Positions 641-61,915 of a stretch of 64,000 nt of DNA are shown one piece after another (the stretch's first letter is position 1; each line of letters starts with the position of its first letter). Both the position numbers and the translations under genes were made by a program. The DNA is from a phage: sequence record PZ386965.1. One strand, given 5' to 3'. Under the pieces are notes generated by a model. The model saw nothing but the letters and a program-made list of their open reading frames with translations. It was not told where the DNA came from and made no database searches.

Positions 641-706
641 TTTATTTCTCCAAATTAGTATTTGTTTTGATAGGTCTATAATATCATGTTTGAAGCAAAA
701 GTAAAC
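625..706 (-). repeat. promoter/5'UTR/start cassette, copy 1 (motA)
   Basis: about 80 bp about 90 percent identical to 945..1028. Confidence 0.7.
678..706 (-). promoter_or_regulatory. early-type sigma70-like promoter for motA
   Basis: minus-sense GTTTAC - 17 nt - TATTAT then conserved AGACCTATCAA. Confidence 0.6.
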
Positions 707-959: not shown

Positions 960-1028
960 TTTATTTCTCCAATTTGGTTGTTTTGTTTTGATAGGTCTAT
1001 AATATCACGTTTGAAGCACATGTAAACT
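945..1028 (-). repeat. promoter/5'UTR/start cassette, copy 2
   Basis: near-identical to 625..706, including RBS and ATGTCTAAA start. Confidence 0.7.
999..1027 (-). promoter_or_regulatory. early-type promoter for 71-aa gene (duplicate of motA promoter)
   Basis: GTTTAC - 17 nt - TATTAT; near-identical to motA promoter/UTR. Confidence 0.6.
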
Positions 1029-1038
1029 GTTTTGTGAG

Positions 1039-1070
1039 AAAAAAAAGCACAAAAGGGAGCCGAAGCTCCC
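1039..1070 (-). terminator. intrinsic terminator after gene 52
   Basis: GGGAGC-ttcg-GCTCCC hairpin followed by T-run in minus sense. Confidence 0.65.
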
Positions 1071-1146
1071 TAATCATGTTTGTCCAACCAATACAGCCAA
1101 ATCACTAGTGCAGCTATTGCACCGAGAAATCCTAAGGCTAGGGCAC

Positions 1147-2476: not shown

Positions 2477-2617
2477 TCACCATATTAATGAACGAATATC
2501 CATTATAACATCTGAAATGAAAAGCACTACTTGGATTAGTCCAAACATCACACCATAGTACAGAACCGTAAGCAACAACAAGAGCCCGAAGGCTCCTGCT
2601 AAGATTTTCTTAATCAT
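2477..2617 (-). CDS. small hydrophobic membrane protein, 46 aa
   Basis: ATG overlaps stop of upstream small ORF (TAATG); hydrophobic; below ORF-track cutoff. Confidence 0.35.
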   Translation of the reverse strand: MIKKILAGAFGLLLLLTVLYYGVMFGLIQVVLFISDVIMDIRSLIW

Positions 2618-3262: not shown

Positions 3263-3307
3263 GCTAATTTCCTCAATTGATTAATGTTTTTTGTAATCCA
3301 TGAGAGC

Positions 3308-3337
3308 ATTATACTCTGCTCTCAAGAGTTTGTACAA
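3308..3337 (-). promoter_or_regulatory. promoter for ndd with -10 flanked by inverted repeat
   Basis: minus-sense TTGTAC...GAGAGCA GAG TATAAT GCTCTC. Confidence 0.5.
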
Positions 3338-3540: not shown

Positions 3541-3600
3541 TTTGTGTTCCTCATGTTTCAGTAGGACTACTATACCATAATCCTACCTTGTTGTAAACAA

Positions 3601-4054: not shown

Positions 4055-4122
4055 GATGTTATCCTCTTTTAGATAGGACTACTATATCATAGTCCTACTT
4101 AGTTGTAAACACTTTTATGAAA

Positions 4123-4912: not shown

Positions 4913-4939
4913 TAAAGAAAAAAGGGGACCGAAGTCCCC
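4913..4939 (-). terminator. intrinsic terminator after rIIB
   Basis: GGGGAC-ttcg-GTCCCC hairpin plus TTTTTTCTTT. Confidence 0.65.
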
Positions 4940-9529: not shown

Positions 9530-9565
9530 CTTATTAAAATTAAAATGAAGCTCCCGAAGGAGCTT
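9530..9565 (-). terminator. intrinsic terminator after gene 39
   Basis: AAGCTCC-ttcg-GGAGCTT hairpin overlapping stop codon, T-rich tail. Confidence 0.55.
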
Positions 9566-11421: not shown

Positions 11422-11446
11422 TAAAGCAAAAAGGGCCGAAGCCCTT
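11422..11446 (-). terminator. intrinsic terminator
   Basis: AAGGGC-ttcg-GCCCTT hairpin plus TTTTTGCTTT. Confidence 0.6.
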
Positions 11447-11891
11447 ATTTAAATTTAATTTTCTGAAGTGCATCAATTGCAGCCAAACGCCCTTGTTCAC
11501 TTTTAACTGTAATGACCACATCGCCTGATACGATCACCGAACCATCAACAAATTCTATAGAGCCTTTTTTGAAATCGACAGCTGTATCTGGTTCCGGAAC
11601 TTCTTCAAAGAATTTAAATTCTGCACCGTAAATCAGAATATCACCTTGCATACTATGAATAGTTCGGCCATAATCGCCTACGGCTTCTACAGCAATCACT
11701 GAAACACCATAGCCAATCATCTCTTCCACAATAAAATCTTTGGACAATAAAGTAGTATGCAGATTAGTATTAAGACGTTTACCAGTCGTATTAAGAATTC
11801 TCAAGAAATTATCTTCCTGTCCTTTGATAATACGATATTTCTTACCAACTTCAAAACCTTTAAAACCTTTAAAAGCCGTATTAAAAGCCAT
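11445..11891 (-). CDS. hypothetical protein, 148 aa
   Basis: ORF followed by terminator hairpin. Confidence 0.55.
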   Translation of the reverse strand: MAFNTAFKGFKGFEVGKKYRIIKGQEDNFLRILNTTGKRLNTNLHTTLLSKDFIVEEMIGYGVSVIAVEAVGDYGRTIHSMQGDILIYGAEFKFFEEVPEPDTAVDFKKGSIEFVDGSVIVSGDVVITVKSEQGRLAAIDALQKIKFK

Positions 11892-13289: not shown

Positions 13290-13348
13290 ATTATTCTCCT
13301 CTGGTTGATATGGTTATAATATCAAAACCAGAGGAGAAGTAAACAACT

Positions 13349-14263: not shown

Positions 14264-14293
14264 ATTATACTCCATCCATCCTTGGATGTACAA
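14264..14293 (-). promoter_or_regulatory. promoter for paralog member 2
   Basis: TTGTAC - 18 nt - TATAAT with CCAAGGATGG spacer. Confidence 0.5.
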
Positions 14294-14822: not shown

Positions 14823-14852
14823 ATTATACTCCAACCATCCTTGGTTGTAAAC
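14823..14852 (-). promoter_or_regulatory. promoter for paralog member 3
   Basis: GTTTAC - 18 nt (CAACCA..TGGTTG inverted repeat) - TATAAT. Confidence 0.55.
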
Positions 14853-18732: not shown

Positions 18733-19314
18733 CTAAAAATTCAACATTTTTAAATGAATGATTTTGTATAGTCGAGATAAAGGGTCATATTCTAAGTCTT
18801 CAATTTCCACAATCTCAAATCTAGAGATACCTGAGACCATGTATTCTTGTTCAGATTCAATCATATCTAGGACGTCAACACGCGTTTCTTCCATAACATG
18901 CTTAGGATTCTTTCCGGCAAGTACAATGTTAACCATGTTTTGGTAGTAATCAAAAATGAATGGAGCATTCCTGAGACTAAGAATAGTGTACGTCTGATAT
19001 TCCCATCTCCCAGAGAATTGACGAGCCGTACTGAAATCAGTTGTGAACGATGTTACTCGTCCAGGAGACCAATGGCATCCAACAGAAAGAAGGGAAAGAC
19101 GTTCTACTTCTTCTGGAGTTACACCACGGTAGAGTTCTACTGGTACTGTAGAAGTCATATGCTTACGAACAAGACGGTCTAATTCATAGTGGAAATCTGG
19201 GTCTTCCTTAGAATCGGTGCAAGCCCAGAGAATGTTTTGTTCTTGGCGGGTGAATTTGCTATCAATCAGATTTGTTAGGTATTCGCGTTCTTGAAGTTCA
19301 GATTGACATGTCAT
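18733..19314 (-). CDS. modB: ADP-ribosyltransferase, ModB-like
   Basis: 193 aa paralog; LYRGV, TSFTT, ESEQE motifs. Confidence 0.65.
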   Translation of the reverse strand: MTCQSELQEREYLTNLIDSKFTRQEQNILWACTDSKEDPDFHYELDRLVRKHMTSTVPVELYRGVTPEEVERLSLLSVGCHWSPGRVTSFTTDFSTARQFSGRWEYQTYTILSLRNAPFIFDYYQNMVNIVLAGKNPKHVMEETRVDVLDMIESEQEYMVSGISRFEIVEIEDLEYDPLSRLYKIIHLKMLNF

Positions 19315-19369
19315 GATAGACCTCCATTTAAAGATAAGCCTATCATAACACGAGAGGAGGGAATGTAAA

Positions 19370-19534
19370 CTACTTTTTAAGCTTTCCTACTAAAGGTCCA
19401 TCAGGACCAGGTTGTTCTAACATGAATAACGATGCTTTAAAAAGCAATGTCAACCCTTTCACCATTCGATACCATATCTCAAAGTCTTTTTCCTTGATTT
19501 CTAGTAAGAATTTCTCTTTAAATTTCTCTTTCAT
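19370..19534 (-). CDS. small charged protein, 54 aa
   Basis: ATGA overlap with upstream ORF stop; SD GGAG. Confidence 0.3.
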   Translation of the reverse strand: MKEKFKEKFLLEIKEKDFEIWYRMVKGLTLLFKASLFMLEQPGPDGPLVGKLKK

Positions 19535-20859: not shown

Positions 20860-20890
20860 AAACAAAAAAAAGGAATCCCGAAGGATTCCT
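20860..20890 (-). terminator. intrinsic terminator after soc
   Basis: GGAATCC-ttcg-GGATTCC hairpin plus T9. Confidence 0.7.
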
Positions 20891-20898
20891 TAAATTAT

Positions 20899-24678: not shown

Positions 24679-24741
24679 TTTAACTCCTTAGTTGATTTGA
24701 TAGGACTACTATACTATAGTCCATCTATAATGTAAACAAGT

Positions 24742-25420: not shown

Positions 25421-25490
25421 TTCAATTTCCTCTATAGTTGATAGGTCTATAGTATCACTACCATAGACCCCTGTAAACAATTATTTTATT

Positions 25491-25837: not shown

Positions 25838-26155
25838 TTAGATTTCCTCACAGAAGGCCCATTCAGCGTGATAAACTGTAGCACCTTTAGTATCATTCAT
25901 TTGAACTACGTCTACCGGAGAAATTACTCGATAGAGACGTGGTTCACCTCCATAAGAGTGTGCTGCTCGTCCTGCATAAATCTTTGCTAAACCGATATCT
26001 TCAGTAAAGAATACACGATCCAAGTTTTTCTTACGTCCAGTTTCAGACAGAACTCCTGTTTCTTCAGGAGGACAAAGCATGTTTTCGATGTTAGCTGAAC
26101 TACTTGAACCGTGATAAAAAATCTTAAATTCTGCTTTACAATCGATGGTTTTCAT
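25838..26155 (-). CDS. hypothetical protein, 105 aa
   Basis: ORF. Confidence 0.5.
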   Translation of the reverse strand: MKTIDCKAEFKIFYHGSSSSANIENMLCPPEETGVLSETGRKKNLDRVFFTEDIGLAKIYAGRAAHSYGGEPRLYRVISPVDVVQMNDTKGATVYHAEWAFCEEI

Positions 26156-26210
26156 TTTGTTCTCCAGTAGTTGATAGGTCTATAATAACACAACTACCGG
26201 AGAAGTAAAC

Positions 26211-26585: not shown

Positions 26586-26650
26586 AATGTTTTCCTCTTG
26601 GTTGGTGTAAGTACATCATATCATGCCTAGAGGAAGATGTAAACCCCGAA

Positions 26651-26668
26651 AGGAGACCGAAGTCTCCT
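26651..26668 (-). terminator. hairpin after gene 41 (possible terminator)
   Basis: GGAGAC-ttcg-GTCTCC; T-run weaker in minus sense, strong in plus sense. Confidence 0.4.
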
Positions 26669-26673
26669 TTTTA

Positions 26674-28125: not shown

Positions 28126-28488
28126 TTAAAAGAATTTAAATTTTTTCTTGGCCCGTTCATTAAAAGCTTGTTGTACTTGCATTGTAACACATTTTTCAAC
28201 ATGCGGTGCAAGTTCTGCTTTTCTGTCCTGGTCAAGAACTGCAAAGTCCATTACGATTTTACCATCAACCCAGTCTAGTTTTGTAATATAGACTATATGA
28301 TGAGAACCGTCTTCAAGTGTAATCAGAATCTCTTGAATGACATTTTCCATTGCTGAACGGATAATTTTAAGAGATTCATTAAACACTCGTTCTTTGCGAA
28401 TGTCTTCCCCTTCCGAAGAAGGGGATTCATCAACGATTTCTAGATTTAAATCATCGAGATTATTCATCGAAATCTTCCATTTCGTCAA
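28126..28488 (-). CDS. 40: gp40-like protein
   Basis: 120 aa ORF between uvsX and 41 as in T4. Confidence 0.45.
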   Translation of the reverse strand: MTKWKISMNNLDDLNLEIVDESPSSEGEDIRKERVFNESLKIIRSAMENVIQEILITLEDGSHHIVYITKLDWVDGKIVMDFAVLDQDRKAELAPHVEKCVTMQVQQAFNERAKKKFKFF

Positions 28489-36320: not shown

Positions 36321-39032
36321 TCAAAAATCGAACATATCGAACAGAGATGCTTTCTTCTCGTAATCGAGTTTCGCTGCTGATGTGAATCCTTCAAGTGGTT
36401 TAATAAATGTCTTCTCAAGGAGAACAGTGTAGTCCATCCAATGAAGTACGTCGTCTTTAATTAAATCTGTGATTTCAGTACCAGAAGGCCATGCGATACA
36501 TTTATCACCGAATGGGTTTCCTTCACGTAAAGGCAGAACATATACTTTTTCACCTTCTACAACTTGTGGAGCATCAATATTACCTTTGATAGCCCGGTTA
36601 TACGTCAGAATTCCACGAATATGGAACGGACATTTAGGGCCAGGGAATCCACCAACATCATATTTAGCAATGTTATTCGCAGAAGATACCGACGCGATGC
36701 TAATATAATTCAATTGACGGAATTCTTTTTCAAACTCTTTAAAATATTCTTGTAATGATTCTTCACCTTCTTGAAGCATACGACGAATACATTCCTTAAG
36801 AGCTTTCTGTACTGCTTTAGGAGTCGAAGATTTCTGAGTCTCGAGACCCATGATTTTGAGTTTAGGCTCAGCGTATCTGGTTCCTTCCATATCCCACACG
36901 TTTAATGCATAACGTTTCTTACCAGTCCAAAATCCGCCAATACCTTTAGAACCGAGCGGAGGGCCAGCAATAGCTTCTCGGTCCATGAACATTAAGTGTT
37001 GTTTATTGTTCATGTATTCACACATTTCACGGAAACCTCTATCAATAGCTGGTTCCATACGTTCACGTGCAAACTTATCTAAGAAGTCTACCCAATGGTT
37101 AGTATCACGGAATTTAGATTCACCAACCTTATCAATAATTTTATCTGCAGATACGTAAATAGAGTCTGTATCACCATAAAGAACGAAAGCTTCACCTTCT
37201 GTACCACAAACTTCATTCAGATATTCATTAACTTTACGTTCAATCCACTGTAAAGCCATTTGTCCGAATGTTGTGATTGCAGTAGCATTACGCAAATCAT
37301 AATAACGGAACCAGACGTTGCCAAGTGCACCATAAAGTGAGTTGATAAGCAATTTACGGTTAATTTGTGCAGTCATACCTGCAACTTCAGTACGTTGAGC
37401 TCTAAACAACATTTCATTAAGAGATTTAGCAGACAACTTTTTAATCTTTTCTTTAATCTCATCACTGAAGTCGAAACGATAATCAACATCTAATGGTTCG
37501 TCAACAGAAAGATTAGGATTATGCAATGCCTCTTTAATTATTTCACCGTTACGTTGAGCTGCAAGCATGTAACCTTTATGTTCTTTACGTTGATTAAAGA
37601 CCTTAGTGATTTCAGTTGGAACTACACCATCACGATCTTTATAATACATCATGCCGTTAGGAGAACAACTGTACACATCTGAAGGACGTTCAGCGATTGC
37701 GTTAATATAATCATGCAATGGAGCTACTTTAAACGTTCCTGCTATTGTTTCCGGGCTAATATTCACTTGGCGAATAATACTTGGATACAGAGATGTAAGG
37801 TCGAAACTCATTACATATTTGTATCGATTTGGAATAGGTTCCTTAACAAAAGCGCCAGGATAAGGTTGAACCGGGTGAGAACGACCTTGTGGAATCACCT
37901 TGTTCTGCTCTTTAAGGCTATTAAAAATAATAGCATCCCATGTTTTAATTGGGCTAAACACAGATTGAATCTGTATCTTAGCATAATAACCCATGTCCAA
38001 ACTCAAGTTGATGAACTGACGCTTAGCATCAATTTGCAATACACGATACACGTCGATAATGTTATAAGAAATATATCGTTGGTGATTGCTTTCACGAAGC
38101 TTAGAAATAGGGCCGTCATATTTCAGTTTACCAACGTTCAATTCAAATTCTGAAATGTAATCCAGAGAATACGACGGTTGATTGGTAAAAGAGAATTTTT
38201 TGTAAAGGTCGATATAATCAAGAACAGAGATACCGAACAATGTAATGATTTCACGAGAACCATACATGTTTTCGATAACTTTAACACGAGTTTTACGATG
38301 TGGTGATAAACGTTTCGCAGTAGATTCGCCAAAAATATTCTTGATTCTGTTATACACATATGGAATATCAAATGACTCAACGTTCCATCCAGTCAAAATG
38401 ACAGGAGTTTTCTGTTGCCAGAAGTTGAGATATTCCATCAACAATTCTTTTTCGTTATCGAACGGCATATAAATGATTTTATCGATAATTTCAGATGGAA
38501 CTTCATCACCACCTTGTTCTTGAAGCTTAGCCGCAATTTCGATAGACCATTCTTCTACATTACCATACGGAGAATTCAATAGATCAAATACGTAGAACCT
38601 GTCGTCAATTGAGTCATAATGGGTGATAGCATCAATCGGATGTTTTGCTTGTGACGGCTCAGGGAACCCATCCGGAGATGTTACTTCGATGTCGAAGTTA
38701 GCCACACGAATTTTTGTATGGTCGTATTTGATTTCATAGTTATAAGTGTCAGACAAATACGCCAATTTGAAATCGTCCATGCCAAGTGCTTCAAGTCCGA
38801 TATCTTCCATGCGTTTAATCCATTGGGAGGCATCACGCATATTAGCGAACAACTTACGAGTACACGGCTTACCGTAGATATCGAAATATTTCGTAGCCTG
38901 ACTTTCTGGACAATGAGCAAACAGTGATGGTTTATATTCTACTTCACGAGTACGTTCACGGCCATTAGAATCGATGTAACGTTCAAAAATTGAATCACCA
39001 ATCTGTTCAACCGTTAAGTAAAATTCTTTCAT
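36321..39032 (-). CDS. 43: DNA polymerase (family B), RB69-type
   Basis: 903 aa; exo motifs FDIEV, pol motifs DTDS and KKRY; sequence essentially that of RB69 gp43 as I recall it. Confidence 0.95.
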   Translation of the reverse strand: MKEFYLTVEQIGDSIFERYIDSNGRERTREVEYKPSLFAHCPESQATKYFDIYGKPCTRKLFANMRDASQWIKRMEDIGLEALGMDDFKLAYLSDTYNYEIKYDHTKIRVANFDIEVTSPDGFPEPSQAKHPIDAITHYDSIDDRFYVFDLLNSPYGNVEEWSIEIAAKLQEQGGDEVPSEIIDKIIYMPFDNEKELLMEYLNFWQQKTPVILTGWNVESFDIPYVYNRIKNIFGESTAKRLSPHRKTRVKVIENMYGSREIITLFGISVLDYIDLYKKFSFTNQPSYSLDYISEFELNVGKLKYDGPISKLRESNHQRYISYNIIDVYRVLQIDAKRQFINLSLDMGYYAKIQIQSVFSPIKTWDAIIFNSLKEQNKVIPQGRSHPVQPYPGAFVKEPIPNRYKYVMSFDLTSLYPSIIRQVNISPETIAGTFKVAPLHDYINAIAERPSDVYSCSPNGMMYYKDRDGVVPTEITKVFNQRKEHKGYMLAAQRNGEIIKEALHNPNLSVDEPLDVDYRFDFSDEIKEKIKKLSAKSLNEMLFRAQRTEVAGMTAQINRKLLINSLYGALGNVWFRYYDLRNATAITTFGQMALQWIERKVNEYLNEVCGTEGEAFVLYGDTDSIYVSADKIIDKVGESKFRDTNHWVDFLDKFARERMEPAIDRGFREMCEYMNNKQHLMFMDREAIAGPPLGSKGIGGFWTGKKRYALNVWDMEGTRYAEPKLKIMGLETQKSSTPKAVQKALKECIRRMLQEGEESLQEYFKEFEKEFRQLNYISIASVSSANNIAKYDVGGFPGPKCPFHIRGILTYNRAIKGNIDAPQVVEGEKVYVLPLREGNPFGDKCIAWPSGTEITDLIKDDVLHWMDYTVLLEKTFIKPLEGFTSAAKLDYEKKASLFDMFDF

Positions 39033-39113
39033 TTAATTTCCTTTAGACGAGTTATTGTCTTTTGTTTGTTGATGAACTTATTATACTCCAAATGGGACCG
39101 AAGTCCCATTGCT

Positions 39114-39491
39114 TTAATTACCAATTGTATATTTTGCTTTCAAAGTCCAGTCATCTTTCTGTTTAAAAGAGATAACACGGAAGTTATTAGTCAGGCCAAA
39201 CAGATCTTCACGAGCAGAGTCTTCAATAACAATTAATCCCCAGTCTTCAAGCAACTGAGCAATCGAATCACGTCGCTGATAGTCTTCACCATCAATATCA
39301 ACCTGACGTCCATCCATACGCAACATTTCTTTAAAGTGGACGATATAATACTTACCTTGCTTTTGGAGGATATGACAAGACTGGTAAAGGACTTTATCCT
39401 TGTTATTAGCGATGCCCATACGAGTCAAAGTCTCTTTGACTTTCAGAAAATCTTCAGGGTTCTTCAATTTAATTTCAATCATTTTTACCAT
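39114..39491 (-). CDS. regA: RegA translational repressor
   Basis: [41 protein letters not shown] matches T4 RegA. Confidence 0.85.
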
Positions 39492-46454: not shown

Positions 46455-46482
46455 AAGCAAAAAAGGAACTCCGAAGAGTTCC
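46455..46482 (-). terminator. intrinsic terminator upstream of gene 47
   Basis: GGAACTC-ttcg-GAGTTCC hairpin plus TTTTTTGCTTT. Confidence 0.6.
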
Positions 46483-46655
46483 TATCCACATAGTACACCA
46501 TACAGAGGCTCATTTGAACTTTTAAATCGAATTGGCTTGTATGTAATAGTTCCTTCGGCTTTAGCTTTATCATAAGACTCTTTAAAACGTCTCATTCTTT
46601 CTGCTTTGCCTTTACGGATTTTATCAAAATTTTCAGAAGTCGGGATGTTCGTCAT
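46482..46655 (-). CDS. small basic protein, 57 aa
   Basis: SD GAGAGGTG; ends in terminator hairpin. Confidence 0.3.
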   Translation of the reverse strand: MTNIPTSENFDKIRKGKAERMRRFKESYDKAKAEGTITYKPIRFKSSNEPLYGVLCG

Positions 46656-48852: not shown

Positions 48853-48918
48853 ATTATTTTCCTCGGTTATTTTATTATCCAACGAGAGAATTATACTCAT
48901 CTCTCAAGAGTTTGTATA

Positions 48919-49158
48919 TTATTTTTTAAGCATGAAAAGTAAGTAATTTGTATCACGTGGAGTAATATCAACACCCATATCAAAGATGCCTTTATAGATT
49001 GGGTATTTGTTTTCGGTTGTATCGAAGCTGAAACTATTTCCATCACAACTAACAGTAATAGCATCTGTTAAAATGTCATACTCAATCCTAACAATTGAAT
49101 CCCCAATTTTAACGTCGAGGTGTTTTTTGAATTTGATAAAATCTAATTCTTGGGCCAT
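48919..49158 (-). CDS. hypothetical protein, 79 aa
   Basis: ORF. Confidence 0.45.
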   Translation of the reverse strand: MAQELDFIKFKKHLDVKIGDSIVRIEYDILTDAITVSCDGNSFSFDTTENKYPIYKGIFDMGVDITPRDTNYLLFMLKK

Positions 49159-49560: not shown

Positions 49561-49854
49561 TCAACTGTAACGATAACATTCGTTAGCTTTACGTTTGGCT
49601 TCAGTATGAGAAGTATTATAATCATACTCTTCTTTACTGTAAACATCTTTTTTCAACTTACGAACTTCTTTGCGGAGTTGTCGATTCATTTCATTCTTGA
49701 CTTCAGAATCAACACCTTTCATACGTTTCCATTTATCTGAGCGGAAGATGTTTTCAACCATGTCTTTGTGGCTAACACCATCAGGAGCTTTACGCTTACC
49801 AAAATAGTCGTAATCGCGAACTTTCAAATCTTTACGACGATATGTTTTACCCAT
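49561..49854 (-). CDS. hypothetical basic protein, about 97 aa
   Basis: SD GAGGT upstream of internal Met. Confidence 0.4.
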   Translation of the reverse strand: MGKTYRRKDLKVRDYDYFGKRKAPDGVSHKDMVENIFRSDKWKRMKGVDSEVKNEMNRQLRKEVRKLKKDVYSKEEYDYNTSHTEAKRKANECYRYS

Positions 49855-50289: not shown

Positions 50290-50456
50290 TTTGTTTTCCT
50301 CTGTGGTAGATGATGCTAATCTTAACATATCTATCGAGGATGTAAACTGTTTTATGAAAATATTTTTGATTTGAGAGGGGCACAAGGAGATAGTGAAGTG
50401 AAGATTCTAATGGATTATATTAGAAATAAGGATAAAGAAGACCAGGCGGCACCTGG

Positions 50457-57673: not shown

Positions 57674-57735
57674 AATATTTTCCTCTCGTTAAGATAGAAA
57701 GATTATACTCTAACCATCCTTGGTTGTAAACTGAT

Positions 57736-58695: not shown

Positions 58696-58750
58696 TTTAT
58701 ATTCCTCATGTTGAAAAATTTATTATACTCCAACCATCCTTGGTTGTACA

Positions 58751-59746
58751 TCATTCCTTAAGAAGTTTTACTACTTGAATAAGATTAGCTCGTTCTGTTT
58801 TATTTTTACCATTTAAGCCTGCTAATCGTGAGATTTCATCGTCAGTCTGTTGAATAGTTACATTAAGTTCGTTAATCAAAGCTTCAAAGTATTTGATTTG
58901 CTCAGCATGTTTTGATTCAAATTTCTGAACCGGAATAACGTCTTGGTTTAGTTCGTCAATAAGGTCTTTAAGAGCATCTTCTTGGTTGATATCGTATTCA
59001 ACTTCTTTTATTTCTTCAACTAGCTCGTCTTTATATCTAACGTCTTTTAGTCCTGGTGCTGGTCCTGAAATCTCTTCTTTAAGAGTACAAACATACCCAA
59101 TACGGTATCCAGTGCCGTCTCGCTTGATATCAACTTCGTCGATAAATCCACAATGTTTGAGACCAGAGCCGATTAGGTCAAAATATCCTTGACGACGTCC
59201 TTCAAACGTTACACGAACTACTAAGACAGTTTTGCCTGCAATCTTTTGAAGCTCACATTTATAAAAGTCAGTTGAACCTGAATAACGTGGATGAGTTTTA
59301 AAGTTCATCTGACGATCTAGGCCCATTTGTAAACGTGCTGTTACGGCCATAAAACGTGTTTGGTTCTCGTTAAGATGAGCAACAATCCATTTCAAAGGCA
59401 TTTTACACTGTTCACGACCGAACAAATCAGTACGTCCTAGATTACGCAGGATGTTGTTAGAGTTAATCATCGACAGAACGTTAAGTTTATTCAGCGCGCT
59501 GAAGATTCCATCAGCCATTGATTTTCCGTAGCCTTTACACGCTTTAATAAGCGCTCGCGGTAGATTAGTATAGATTTCAGACGGCATATGAAAATCAAAT
59601 TTACTAACCAGTAATTGATGAACTTGGATAGCAATTCGTTCATAATTAAGCGCTCTGCGATCATTATGGTCTTTAAACCACACTTTAATCTGTGAAGCAC
59701 ATAAACCGTTAATTTCATGTTTTATCGCATCAGATGTAATGCTCAT
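58751..59746 (-). CDS. hypothetical protein with C-terminal coiled coil, 331 aa
   Basis: ORF behind related promoter. Confidence 0.55.
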   Translation of the reverse strand: MSITSDAIKHEINGLCASQIKVWFKDHNDRRALNYERIAIQVHQLLVSKFDFHMPSEIYTNLPRALIKACKGYGKSMADGIFSALNKLNVLSMINSNNILRNLGRTDLFGREQCKMPLKWIVAHLNENQTRFMAVTARLQMGLDRQMNFKTHPRYSGSTDFYKCELQKIAGKTVLVVRVTFEGRRQGYFDLIGSGLKHCGFIDEVDIKRDGTGYRIGYVCTLKEEISGPAPGLKDVRYKDELVEEIKEVEYDINQEDALKDLIDELNQDVIPVQKFESKHAEQIKYFEALINELNVTIQQTDDEISRLAGLNGKNKTERANLIQVVKLLKE

Positions 59747-59808: not shown

Positions 59809-60336
59809 TTATGCGTGAACCGTCTTTAAACGTTCTTCAAATTTCCGAAGAGTACTAATACGTTCTGCTTTCTGTTTTGTATAGTTTGCAATACGTTCTG
59901 AAGTGAGAGCGTATCGTTCGTTTACTGTTTCTTTCATGAAGTCAGGGATTTCACGAGAAGCTTTAATTTCATCAAACTTGTCGAGTACTGCCTGGTCTTC
60001 AGCGATTAAATTTTCATACATCTCGATATCTTTCTTGATAAACTCGATATCTTCCTGAGTTACTTTGGATAAACGAGATGCTTTATCCTTTTTGTACTGC
60101 TCGTTAGTTTCACGAGACCAGAATAATGTACGTTTTTTGTTAGTGTTTTTGTAGACTTCCACAATTCCAACTGAATCGATGATAACAATCCAATTCCAGC
60201 GAGATTTGAAAATCTGACCTCCATCCACAGTAATCTCGTTACCATAAGCAACGTCATTAAAGAACTTGCTCTGTGCTTCAGATTTAAATTTACCGTCGTT
60301 ATAATTTACCAGGTTGAAAATATCTTTAGCGTTCAT
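59809..60336 (-). CDS. hypothetical protein, 175 aa
   Basis: ORF with promoter upstream. Confidence 0.5.
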   Translation of the reverse strand: MNAKDIFNLVNYNDGKFKSEAQSKFFNDVAYGNEITVDGGQIFKSRWNWIVIIDSVGIVEVYKNTNKKRTLFWSRETNEQYKKDKASRLSKVTQEDIEFIKKDIEMYENLIAEDQAVLDKFDEIKASREIPDFMKETVNERYALTSERIANYTKQKAERISTLRKFEERLKTVHA

Positions 60337-60363
60337 GTTTTACCTCCAGTAGTTGATAGGTCT

Positions 60364-60392
60364 ATAATAACATAACCATAGACCTTGTAAAC
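60364..60392 (-). promoter_or_regulatory. early-type promoter with 8-bp inverted repeat straddling -10
   Basis: GTTTAC AAGGTCTATGG... TATTAT AGACCT. Confidence 0.55.
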
Positions 60393-60394
60393 AA

Positions 60395-60682
60395 CTAAAA
60401 GAAACTTTTTTCGGTATTTTTTCCACTGAACCAAACAGACTTCGGGATTTTTTGTAATTTTTCAGATTTAAGTTTCTCTTCCTGTTCTTTCTTATATACA
60501 CTCTTGTCGTACTGGAGCATCTCTATGGCATTCTTTTGCAAATGATCTAAGGTAATTAAGGCTTTAGTTTTTCCTTTCAAGGAAGAGTCCTGGCGAACCT
60601 CCTCGCTATATTGCATTGTAGAACTAACCATACGATGTGCATAGAGTTCGACTGCGGCTTTAATTTTTTGCATAAAATCCAT
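60395..60682 (-). CDS. hypothetical protein, 95 aa
   Basis: ORF. Confidence 0.4.
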   Translation of the reverse strand: MDFMQKIKAAVELYAHRMVSSTMQYSEEVRQDSSLKGKTKALITLDHLQKNAIEMLQYDKSVYKKEQEEKLKSEKLQKIPKSVWFSGKNTEKSFF

Positions 60683-61890: not shown

Positions 61891-61915
61891 CCCCTAAAGG
61901 GACCCGAAGGTCCCC
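61891..61915 (-). terminator. hairpin after secreted-protein gene (possible terminator)
   Basis: GGGACC-ttcg-GGTCCC; T-run interrupted. Confidence 0.4.

Follow-up and report, generated by a model that had tools for sequence, protein, structure and literature searches.

Inverted repeats embedded in early promoters of an RB69-like phage: probable promoter/hairpin cassettes acting on read-through RNA

Why should the -10 element of a phage early promoter lie inside an inverted repeat? The question arises at positions 60364..60392 of a 64,000-nucleotide (nt) stretch of phage DNA (record PZ386965.1), which in its full length we call the window. There, a minus-strand promoter shares its bases with a potential hairpin, and about 15 of some 24 early promoters in the window carry an embedded repeat of this or a related kind. 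A first description made from the letters alone (the sequence-only reading) placed the -10 hexamer in the loop or stem of a potential hairpin or cruciform, and suggested structure-dependent promoter control or operator sites. The geometry holds: the -10 lies in the loop or in the 3' arm. On function we reach a different answer. The repeats are probably composite early-promoter/hairpin cassettes of the promoter-early stem-loop (PeSL) type, acting on read-through RNA from the upstream gene.

Judged by similarity, the window is the early region of a Mosigvirus, an RB69-like T-even phage. A 4-kb piece around the 60,358 site has 98% identity to many Mosigvirus genomes (RB69-like, Tevenvirinae), a second piece has 99.5% identity to Shigella phage Shf125875, and the minus-strand genes follow the T4 early region in their order, from rIIA to nrdC. 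T4-type early promoters have a GTTTAC -35, a TAnnnT -10 and an A-rich upstream element, and 57 have been predicted in RB69 (Nolan et al., 2006, PMC1524935). The window promoters agree with these in consensus, orientation and position before early genes, and the RB69 preference for C at -3 to -1 matches an AGNCCT block seen here; hairpins or inverted repeats are unmentioned in that paper. The sequence-only reading was right about the promoters themselves: an exact search for GTTTAC-N16-19-TAYWAT finds 11 copies where 0.38 would be expected, every one of them on the minus strand. A scan with a position-weight matrix built from 16 clear sites gives about 24 minus-strand early promoters of the form GTTTAC-N17/18-TAnnnT, with one plus-strand score comparable, and their predicted leaders run 20–43 nt to the ATG. 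A conserved block said to follow many of them, AGACCTATCAA, does stand directly after the -10, with 5 exact copies (667, 988, 25438, 26171 and 60353), each immediately 3' of a -10, and one-mismatch copies at 2 more promoters; "many" thus comes to 5–7 of 24. Copies with up to two mismatches number 28 across the window against 21.7 expected, which is not above chance; we attach meaning only to the promoter copies that match exactly or nearly so.

The embedded repeats span the -10, lie within the spacer, or pair the spacer or the -10 with the downstream Shine-Dalgarno (SD) sequence or AUG (Table 1). An Rfam search of the whole window returned zero family matches. In class 1, the spacer carries the complement of the downstream block. 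At the 60364..60392 promoter the core pairing joins AGGTCTAT (60378..60385) with ATAGACCT (60358..60365), giving 8 Watson-Crick pairs, then two G·U and one U-A, with the -10 within the loop and 3' arm. An outer helix joins TAGTTG (60392..60397, in the upstream stop codon region) with CAACTA (60350..60355), and the RNA fold is -16.7 kcal/mol (z=-2.5). The record of phage SA79RD, 98% identical, has a T4-type early promoter annotated at this site. A second class 1 pair, reported near 25440, is also present, at the 25478 promoter, which carries GGTCTAT/ATAGACC. Class 2 places TATAAT between two arms. The arms GAGAGCA/TGCTCTC that the sequence-only reading gave for it are found at 3301..3324, with TATAAT in the loop, and the second copy, at 48884..48905, instead reads GAGAGA...TCTCTC; from its sequence it is a compensatory variant of the first stem. 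Class 3 lies within the spacer. Its hairpin (minus strand CAACCA-AGGA-TGGTTG) is intact at 14832..14847 and 58731..58746, and the further copy near 57712..57725 has an arm mismatch. A fourth copy, at 14273..14288, is new relative to the sequence-only reading and reads CATCCA/TGGATG.

Table 1. Early promoters of the window and the inverted repeats embedded in them.
Feature	Positions	Strand	Elements and paired arms
Early promoter	60364..60392	minus	-35 GTTTAC 60387..60392; -10 TATTAT 60364..60369; predicted +1 near 60357; ATG 60334..60336; gene: 175-amino-acid NrdC.8-like open reading frame
Class 1 hairpin	60358..60385	minus	5' arm AGGTCTATGGT 60375..60385; 3' arm ATTATAGACCT 60358..60368
Spackle (sp) early promoter, class 1 hairpin	25443..25478	minus	GGGTCTATGGTA 25459..25470 with TACTATAGACCT 25443..25454
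Early promoter, -10-centred hairpin	4073..4110	minus	GTAGGACTAT 4089..4098 with GTAGTCCTAT 4073..4082
Early promoter, -10-centred hairpin	3560..3598	minus	GGTAGGATTAT 3577..3587 with GTAGTCCTACT 3560..3570
Early promoter hairpin	24703..24737	minus	GGACTAT 24716..24722 with GTAGTCC 24703..24709
Class 2 promoter, motB-type	3301..3337	minus	TGAGAGCA 3317..3324 with TGCTCTCA 3301..3308, 8 nt between
Class 2 paralogue	48884..48919	minus	GAGAGA 48900..48905 with TCTCTC 48884..48889, around TATAAT
Class 3, spacer-internal hairpin	14823..14852	minus	CAACCA 14842..14847, loop AGGA, TGGTTG 14832..14837
Class 3 variant	14264..14293	minus	CATCCA 14283..14288 with TGGATG 14273..14278, compensatory change
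Class 3, weakened stem	57702..57731	minus	AACCA/TGGTT; outer C opposite A (arm TGGTTA, 57712..57725)
Class 3, -35 ATGTAC	58722..58751	minus	CAACCA 58741..58746 with TGGTTG 58731..58736
motB.2-type early promoter	13294..13344	minus	spacer TTCTCCTCTGGTT 13326..13338 with AACCAGAGGAGAA 13294..13306 (holds SD)
Early promoter, ribosome site hidden	26160..26210	minus	TTCTCCGGTAGTTG 26191..26204 with CAACTACTGGAGAA 26160..26173
modB-type early promoter	19309..19370	minus	5' arm TGTTATGATAGGCTT 19336..19350 (-10 and bases directly after); 3' arm AGGTCTATCATGACA 19309..19323 (part of SD and start codon 19312..19314)
Early promoter	50297..50347	minus	spacer TCCTC..TAGAT with ATCTA..GAGGA including SD

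Are such repeats more frequent at promoters than chance would give? They are. Ungapped Watson-Crick stems of at least 7 bp spanning the -10 occur at 7 of the 24 promoters and in 6% of random minus-strand 62-mers (P=4e-4), and stems of at least 8 bp at 4 promoters and in 1.7% of 62-mers; spacer-internal 6-bp stems are found at 3 promoters vs 1% of random sequence. Mean folding energy is -10.3 kcal/mol for the promoters and -8.3 kcal/mol for chimeras in which the 5' half of one promoter was joined to the 3' half of another (permutation P=3.5e-4). The 24 promoters fall into a few paralogous families, so these chance tests count more independent events than there really are; the comparative evidence below stands without them. 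A count of base pairs enclosing the -10 was dropped in favour of ungapped stem length, as 52–57% of random sequence passed it.

The comparative evidence comes from related phages. We scanned IMG/VR with the pattern GTTTAC-N17/18-TANNNT-AGNCCTATC, in which the spacer and one arm position were left free, with no selection for pairing, and obtained 120 loci with 123 distinct promoters. Where the spacer reads GGN'CT, N' and the N of AGNCCT form a Watson-Crick pair in 42 of 45 cases (T-A 13, G-C 21, A-T 8), and the remaining three comprise two sense-strand G·U pairs and one mismatch. The fourth combination, C-G, is also present in a wider set of related promoters, and the 4073..4110 hairpin of the window is the A-T variant. 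The class 1-type 5' arm occurs in varying registers, with loops of 6–12 nt. In the late register, at least 7 of 8 positions are Watson-Crick pairs in 21 of 236 distinct sequences, as against 0–2 when the 3' arm is slid by 1–8 nt. In an alignment of 26 sequences (A1), 9 of 11 pairs change on both sides with pairing kept; slid controls are far lower, and none of 500 shuffles reaches any of five measures. Classes 2 and 3 vary in the same manner (GAGAGC/GCTCTC, GAGAGA/TCTCTC, GGGACC/GGTCCC, GGGAGC/GCTCCT and GGGGCC/GGCCCC in class 2; CAACCA/TGGTTG, CATCCA/TGGATG and, with a U·G pair, CTTCCA/TGGAGG in class 3). An IMG/VR scan with the spackle protein gave 2 loci only, and one with the exact class 2 DNA pattern gave 1.

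Orthologous promoters tell the same story at fixed loci. We compared the whole or part of the early regions of AnYang (Dhakavirus), DK-13 (Gaprivervirus), Sf23 (Tequatrovirus), Moon (Moonvirus) and PG7 (Karamvirus). Hairpins built from other sequences are present in T4, Dhakavirus, Gaprivervirus, Karamvirus and Moonvirus. The T4 dmd promoter has a 15-bp stem around TATAGT, and the T4 motB promoter reads GGGACC-AGAGTATAAT-GGTCCC. The motB-type class 2 orthologues in T4, DK-13, AnYang and Sf23 all keep the hairpin with differing stems, the motB set comprising GAGAGC/GCTCTC, GGGACC/GGTCCC, GGGGCC/GGCCCC and GAGAGCC/GGCTCT. On this sequence evidence, pairing is maintained by compensatory change.

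The same data bear on the idea that the repeats are by-products of mobile promoter cassettes, copied and homogenised by recombination, with a hairpin that serves recombination or nothing at all. Near-identical promoter cores do stand at distant sites (14852, 57731 and 58751), different phages and contigs carry the same core ahead of differing downstream leaders, and insertions, deletions and mini-circles have been attributed to PeSLs (PMC2839356, PMC4122927). However, copying alone cannot create new matched pairs, and three Watson-Crick pairs at one position in the set obtained without selection for pairing (four in the wider set), together with many compensatory variants, require selection for pairing. 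Orthologous promoters at fixed loci, moreover, keep the structure despite diverged sequences. We consider it very unlikely that the repeats are only such by-products; a role in recombination would be compatible with the PeSL-type explanation.

A fourth kind of repeat, unlisted in the sequence-only reading, has a spacer complementary to the downstream SD region. It is found at the promoters at 13344, 26210 and 50347, and weakly at 26644. The 13-bp stem at 13344 has a fold of -23.9 kcal/mol (z=-6.6); the stem at 26210, 14 bp including one G·U, has -21.0 kcal/mol (z=-5.3); and the fold at 50347 is -15.0 kcal/mol (z=-4.8). At 19370, the gene that follows encodes a 193-amino-acid modB-like protein. 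In the long transcript the SD and/or AUG is paired at 13344, 26210, 19370 and 50347, and not in classes 1–3. When the long transcript is replaced by the promoter-started one, the predicted gain in ribosome-site accessibility is 0.142 for promoter-proximal genes and 0.070 for controls (P=0.015), a difference due to a subset of the genes.

This kind, too, is conserved by covariation. In T4, the spacer of the motB.2 promoter pairs with the SD and the -10 of the modB promoter with the SD/AUG. The motB.2 orthologues have three matched arm pairs, TTCTCCTCTGGTT/AACCAGAGGAGAA in the window, TTCTCCTCATG/CATGAGGAGAA in AnYang and TCCTCGGTTAGTTGTGG/CCATAGCTACTGAGGA in T4, the last including three G·U pairs. 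The modB hairpin, -10 with SD/AUG, is found in six genera (Mosigvirus, Tequatrovirus, Gaprivervirus, Dhakavirus, Karamvirus and Moonvirus) with energies of -19 to -27 kcal/mol, and -31.0 for a longer 110-nt Moon stretch. Its -10 covaries with the start-codon bases (TATGAT/AUCAUG, CATAAT/AUUAUG). In Citrobacter phage Moon the hairpin occupies 11601..11633.

Do the repeats act as RNA or as DNA? Transition-tolerant stems contain 20 G·T positions, which are wobble pairs in the sense strand, and 2 A·C positions, which are wobble pairs in the antisense strand; chimeric controls give a G·T:A·C ratio of about 70:30, and random sequence gives 56:44. The 3560..3598 hairpin, with one sense-strand U·G wobble, folds at -15.8 kcal/mol in the sense strand vs -6.3 kcal/mol in the antisense strand. 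Use of the SD/AUG as a 3' arm also points to RNA, since SD and AUG matter only in mRNA. In the -10-centred hairpins the 3' arm ends at the predicted start site or within about 3 nt of it, so both arms should be present only in RNA from upstream.

Control at the level of DNA would work through cruciform extrusion, or through a phage or host protein that binds the repeat as a palindromic operator, and would modulate initiation at the embedded promoter. It would explain why repeats are centred on the -10 and the bases just after it, and why class 2 stems are perfect G+C-rich palindromes; a palindromic site would also show symmetric changes. Yet 9 of 11 stem positions change on both sides, the stems of the three classes are unrelated, and arm spacing and register vary, so there is no conserved half-site for a protein and no fixed spacing. 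Most Watson-Crick arms are of 6–8 bp with 6–12 nt loops, and longer stems need G·T positions, which are mismatches in DNA. Arms and loops of this size are poor for cruciform extrusion, for which long perfect arms and a very short spacer are expected and which the repeats do not have. In a sigma-70 open complex the 5' arm (-22 to -15) would also stay double-stranded, which again counts against DNA-level control. Many 3' arms are the SD/AUG, a choice without meaning for DNA, and embedded hairpins substitute for stand-alone RNA-type hairpins with UUCG loops, as described next. The cruciform or operator reading is accordingly disfavoured, the least supported of those considered and in our view highly improbable; the earlier suggestion of structure-dependent promoter control is not supported.

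Placement of the hairpins follows the room available. The upstream stop codon lies within 12 nt of the -35 in 13 of the 15 promoters with an embedded hairpin. A separate strong hairpin stands just upstream of five of the nine promoters without an embedded one (61868, 26644, 20854, 1027 and 706) and of none of the 15 with one (Fisher P ~0.003). Four of these five have a UUCG loop, some with a U-tract (e.g. 20870..20891, then TTTTTT). Embedded hairpins take the place of stand-alone terminator-like hairpins where intergenic room runs out. With intrinsic terminators and T4 CUUCGG hairpins they share a stable sense-strand stem-loop at a gene end, and the hairpins upstream of 61868, 26644, 20854 and 1027 are of that kind. 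The embedded hairpins differ in their A+U-richer stems, larger loops and lack of a U-tract; a G+C-rich stem with a direct U-tract is seen only in stand-alone ones.

UUCG-tetraloop hairpins are a feature of the window at large, with 11 strong ones on the minus (sense) strand (61898..61915, 46464..46483, 39091..39110, 28406..28425, 26649..26670, 20870..20891, 11431..11446, 9548..9565, 4924..4939, 2578..2599 and 1054..1071) vs one weak one on the plus strand. Several have a U-tract after them and an early promoter just downstream. They resemble the CUUCGG hairpins that Tuerk et al. are said to have described in 1988 from T4 intercistronic regions. At 39060..39125, minus strand, a UUCG hairpin (AATGGGAC-TTCG-GTCCCATT) lies immediately 5' of TGGAGTATAAT; after that come a CATCAAC leader and, near 39030, the start of a gene. 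The arrangement resembles a promoter whose spacer holds a terminator-type hairpin and which has no recognisable GTTTAC -35. It may be a middle-type or atypical promoter.

Could the embedded hairpins be plain transcription terminators of the upstream gene that overlap the next promoter by chance and have no role in translation? Annotation leans this way: the SA79RD record has an overlapping "rho-independent terminator", equivalent to window 60348..60385, over the 60358..60385 hairpin, and the Moon record has a terminator over the modB-like ribosome site. One PeSL stem-loop lowered downstream lacZ expression like a strong terminator, rrnB T1 (PMC2839356), and embedded and stand-alone hairpins are complementary in distribution. 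However, effects on translation or RNA stability would look the same as termination in the lacZ assay, and early transcripts are known to run into downstream genes (PMC2988021). The embedded hairpins have no U-tract, whereas stand-alone ones often do, and termination would not require pairing with the SD/AUG in particular, a pairing that six genera conserve. We regard plain terminators of this sort as unlikely. Literature searches for transcript-end maps of T4-type phages returned nothing usable.

For the PeSL-type explanation that we prefer, transcription start positions, the occurrence of read-through and its effects on termination, RNA stability and translation are what we infer. Polymerase from an upstream promoter would read through the cassette and transcribe both arms, and a hairpin would form at the gene boundary. 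It may serve as an attenuator or a stable 3' end where the upstream unit finishes, and would thus be a boundary element of that unit squeezed into the promoter where genes abut. In the subset at 13344, 26210, 19370 and 50347 (weakly 26644), the read-through hairpin would also pair the SD/AUG of the next gene. A transcript from the nested promoter, predicted to start about 7 nt after the -10, would be without the 5' arm and have its ribosome site free. The net effect would be to insulate each early gene from transcription arriving from upstream. A hidden ribosome site could also cause Rho-dependent polarity, untranslated RNA being open to Rho (for background, PMC2988021). As pure speculation, RegB might cleave the GGAG just downstream, and the hairpin would then protect the new 3' end (background on RegB, PMC3014915).

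PeSLs were described in T4-like phages (Arbiol et al., 2010, PMC2839356; Comeau et al., 2014, PMC4122927), and have been proposed both to terminate or attenuate transcription from upstream and to be sites of recombination (PMC2839356). They consist of an early promoter and AT-rich upstream region fused to a stem-loop, then an SD and ATG, with many repeats of the cassette between small early genes. The same is seen in the window: sigma-70-type early promoters with a 17–18 nt spacer and an A/T-rich upstream region lie between a stop codon on one side and an SD and ATG on the other, and a stem-loop is embedded in 15 of 24 and stands alone just upstream of 5 more. As here, the positions of phi1/RB49 stem-loops include the stretch between the -35 and -10 and overlap with the -10 (PMC2839356), PeSL stems contain G-T pairs, and an attenuator or terminator role was proposed. 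PeSLs differ in having been described for RB49/phi1, with TTGACA-type promoters and polyG/polyC stems, and later for PST/T4 and nt-1/KVP40 (PMC4122927); according to a figure legend of the 2014 paper, the PST stem-loops lie just upstream of the promoter. The 2010 paper mentions neither RB69-like phages nor translation and ribosome-site hiding (PMC2839356). The window cassettes thus fit the PeSL description in a genus not mentioned in 2010, and add to it the covariation evidence and the placement rule.

The ribosome-site subset has a closer parallel. In T4 e, soc, 49 and I-TevI, the ribosome site is hidden by a hairpin with a promoter inside it (PMC3014915). As in those genes, at 13344, 26210 and 19370 the SD and/or AUG is paired in long upstream transcripts, the promoter lies inside the DNA of the structure, and the promoter's own transcript would be without the 5' strand and translatable (here by geometry, from the predicted +1). 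The nested promoter of the T4 genes is a late one (gp55, TATAAATA) and delays translation to the late period, whereas those of the window are early promoters of the GTTTAC/TAnnnT sigma-70 type. By this analogy, the subset would work like the e/soc/49/I-TevI family without being a member of it. It is conceivable, though we put it somewhat below an even chance, that the promoter-nested hairpins are a conserved translation gate dependent on where the transcript began. The spacer or -10 of a gene's own promoter would then serve as the anti-ribosome-site strand (for example in modB, motB.2 and the 105-amino-acid open reading frame at 25838..26155), and the protein would be made only from own-promoter mRNA, not from early or middle read-through RNA. 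If so, translation would be tied to the short window of early-promoter activity. Such a gate at early promoters is absent from the PeSL papers (PMC2839356, PMC4122927), and the T4 reviews consulted list late-promoter cases only.

Several points weigh against an RNA-level, PeSL-type role. Because alignment A1 was assembled from sequences that pair at the inner 8 positions, its covariation measures carry weight but its percentage paired does not; the sequences compared are related, and cell counts overstate independent events. Conservation has gaps, the sp promoter hairpin being absent in T4 and the 26210 hairpin in DK-13. The extended -10 is G/T-rich and accounts for part of the G·T excess, and a binomial test against the 70% chimeric null gives P ~0.02. 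Across the 24 promoters the mean fold is -9.95 kcal/mol for the sense and -10.0 kcal/mol for the antisense strand, with no difference, so the case for RNA rests on the wobble counts and SD/AUG involvement; class 2, with its perfect Watson-Crick palindromes, is as compatible with DNA as with RNA. After the embedded hairpins a U-tract is missing and sequences such as ATCAACTACTGG or AATAATATG stand in its place, so the canonical model does not predict intrinsic termination there. Finally, the accessibility effect is modest at the level of the set, and occlusion of the ribosome site is strong only in the subset.

Other observations concern the leaders and the promoter set. A transcribed leader, (C)TATCAACTACTGGAG, is conserved between RB69-like phages and T4 (window 60343..60357, 26160..26175 and 25430..25442; T4, L004, promoters 27080 and 6630). 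Its complement TAGTTG recurs, at 26210 and at T4 6630 and 8218 within the spacer and at 60392..60397 just 5' of the -35, so the leader is often one strand of a helix. Two near-identical early promoters, 678..706 and 999..1027, lie 320 bp apart with a common spacer core (GCTTCAAAC), a common leader (AGACCTATCAAAACAAA) and a small MSK-starting gene after each; they look like a tandem duplication of a promoter-plus-gene cassette. A good early-promoter match at 49615..49644 falls within a coding region and is conserved in T4 (L004 near 41261), the peptide MNIKRMLFKQGL following it in both. Five open reading frames of about 320 amino acids at 56.7–63.2 kb were considered as possible paralogues but show no blastp similarity.

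For the biology of T-even phages, the cassettes suggest a simple rule for keeping densely packed early genes separate: where there is no room between the stop codon and the -35, the hairpin goes inside the promoter. Terminator predictions over early promoters or ribosome sites in T-even genomes are then probably real structures and not annotation errors. In phage engineering, altering the spacer or the bases after the -10 may alter how the downstream gene responds to read-through. Should the ribosome-site-hiding subset act in the proposed way, a classic mechanism of T4 late genes would reach early genes as well, the ADP-ribosyltransferase gene modB among them.

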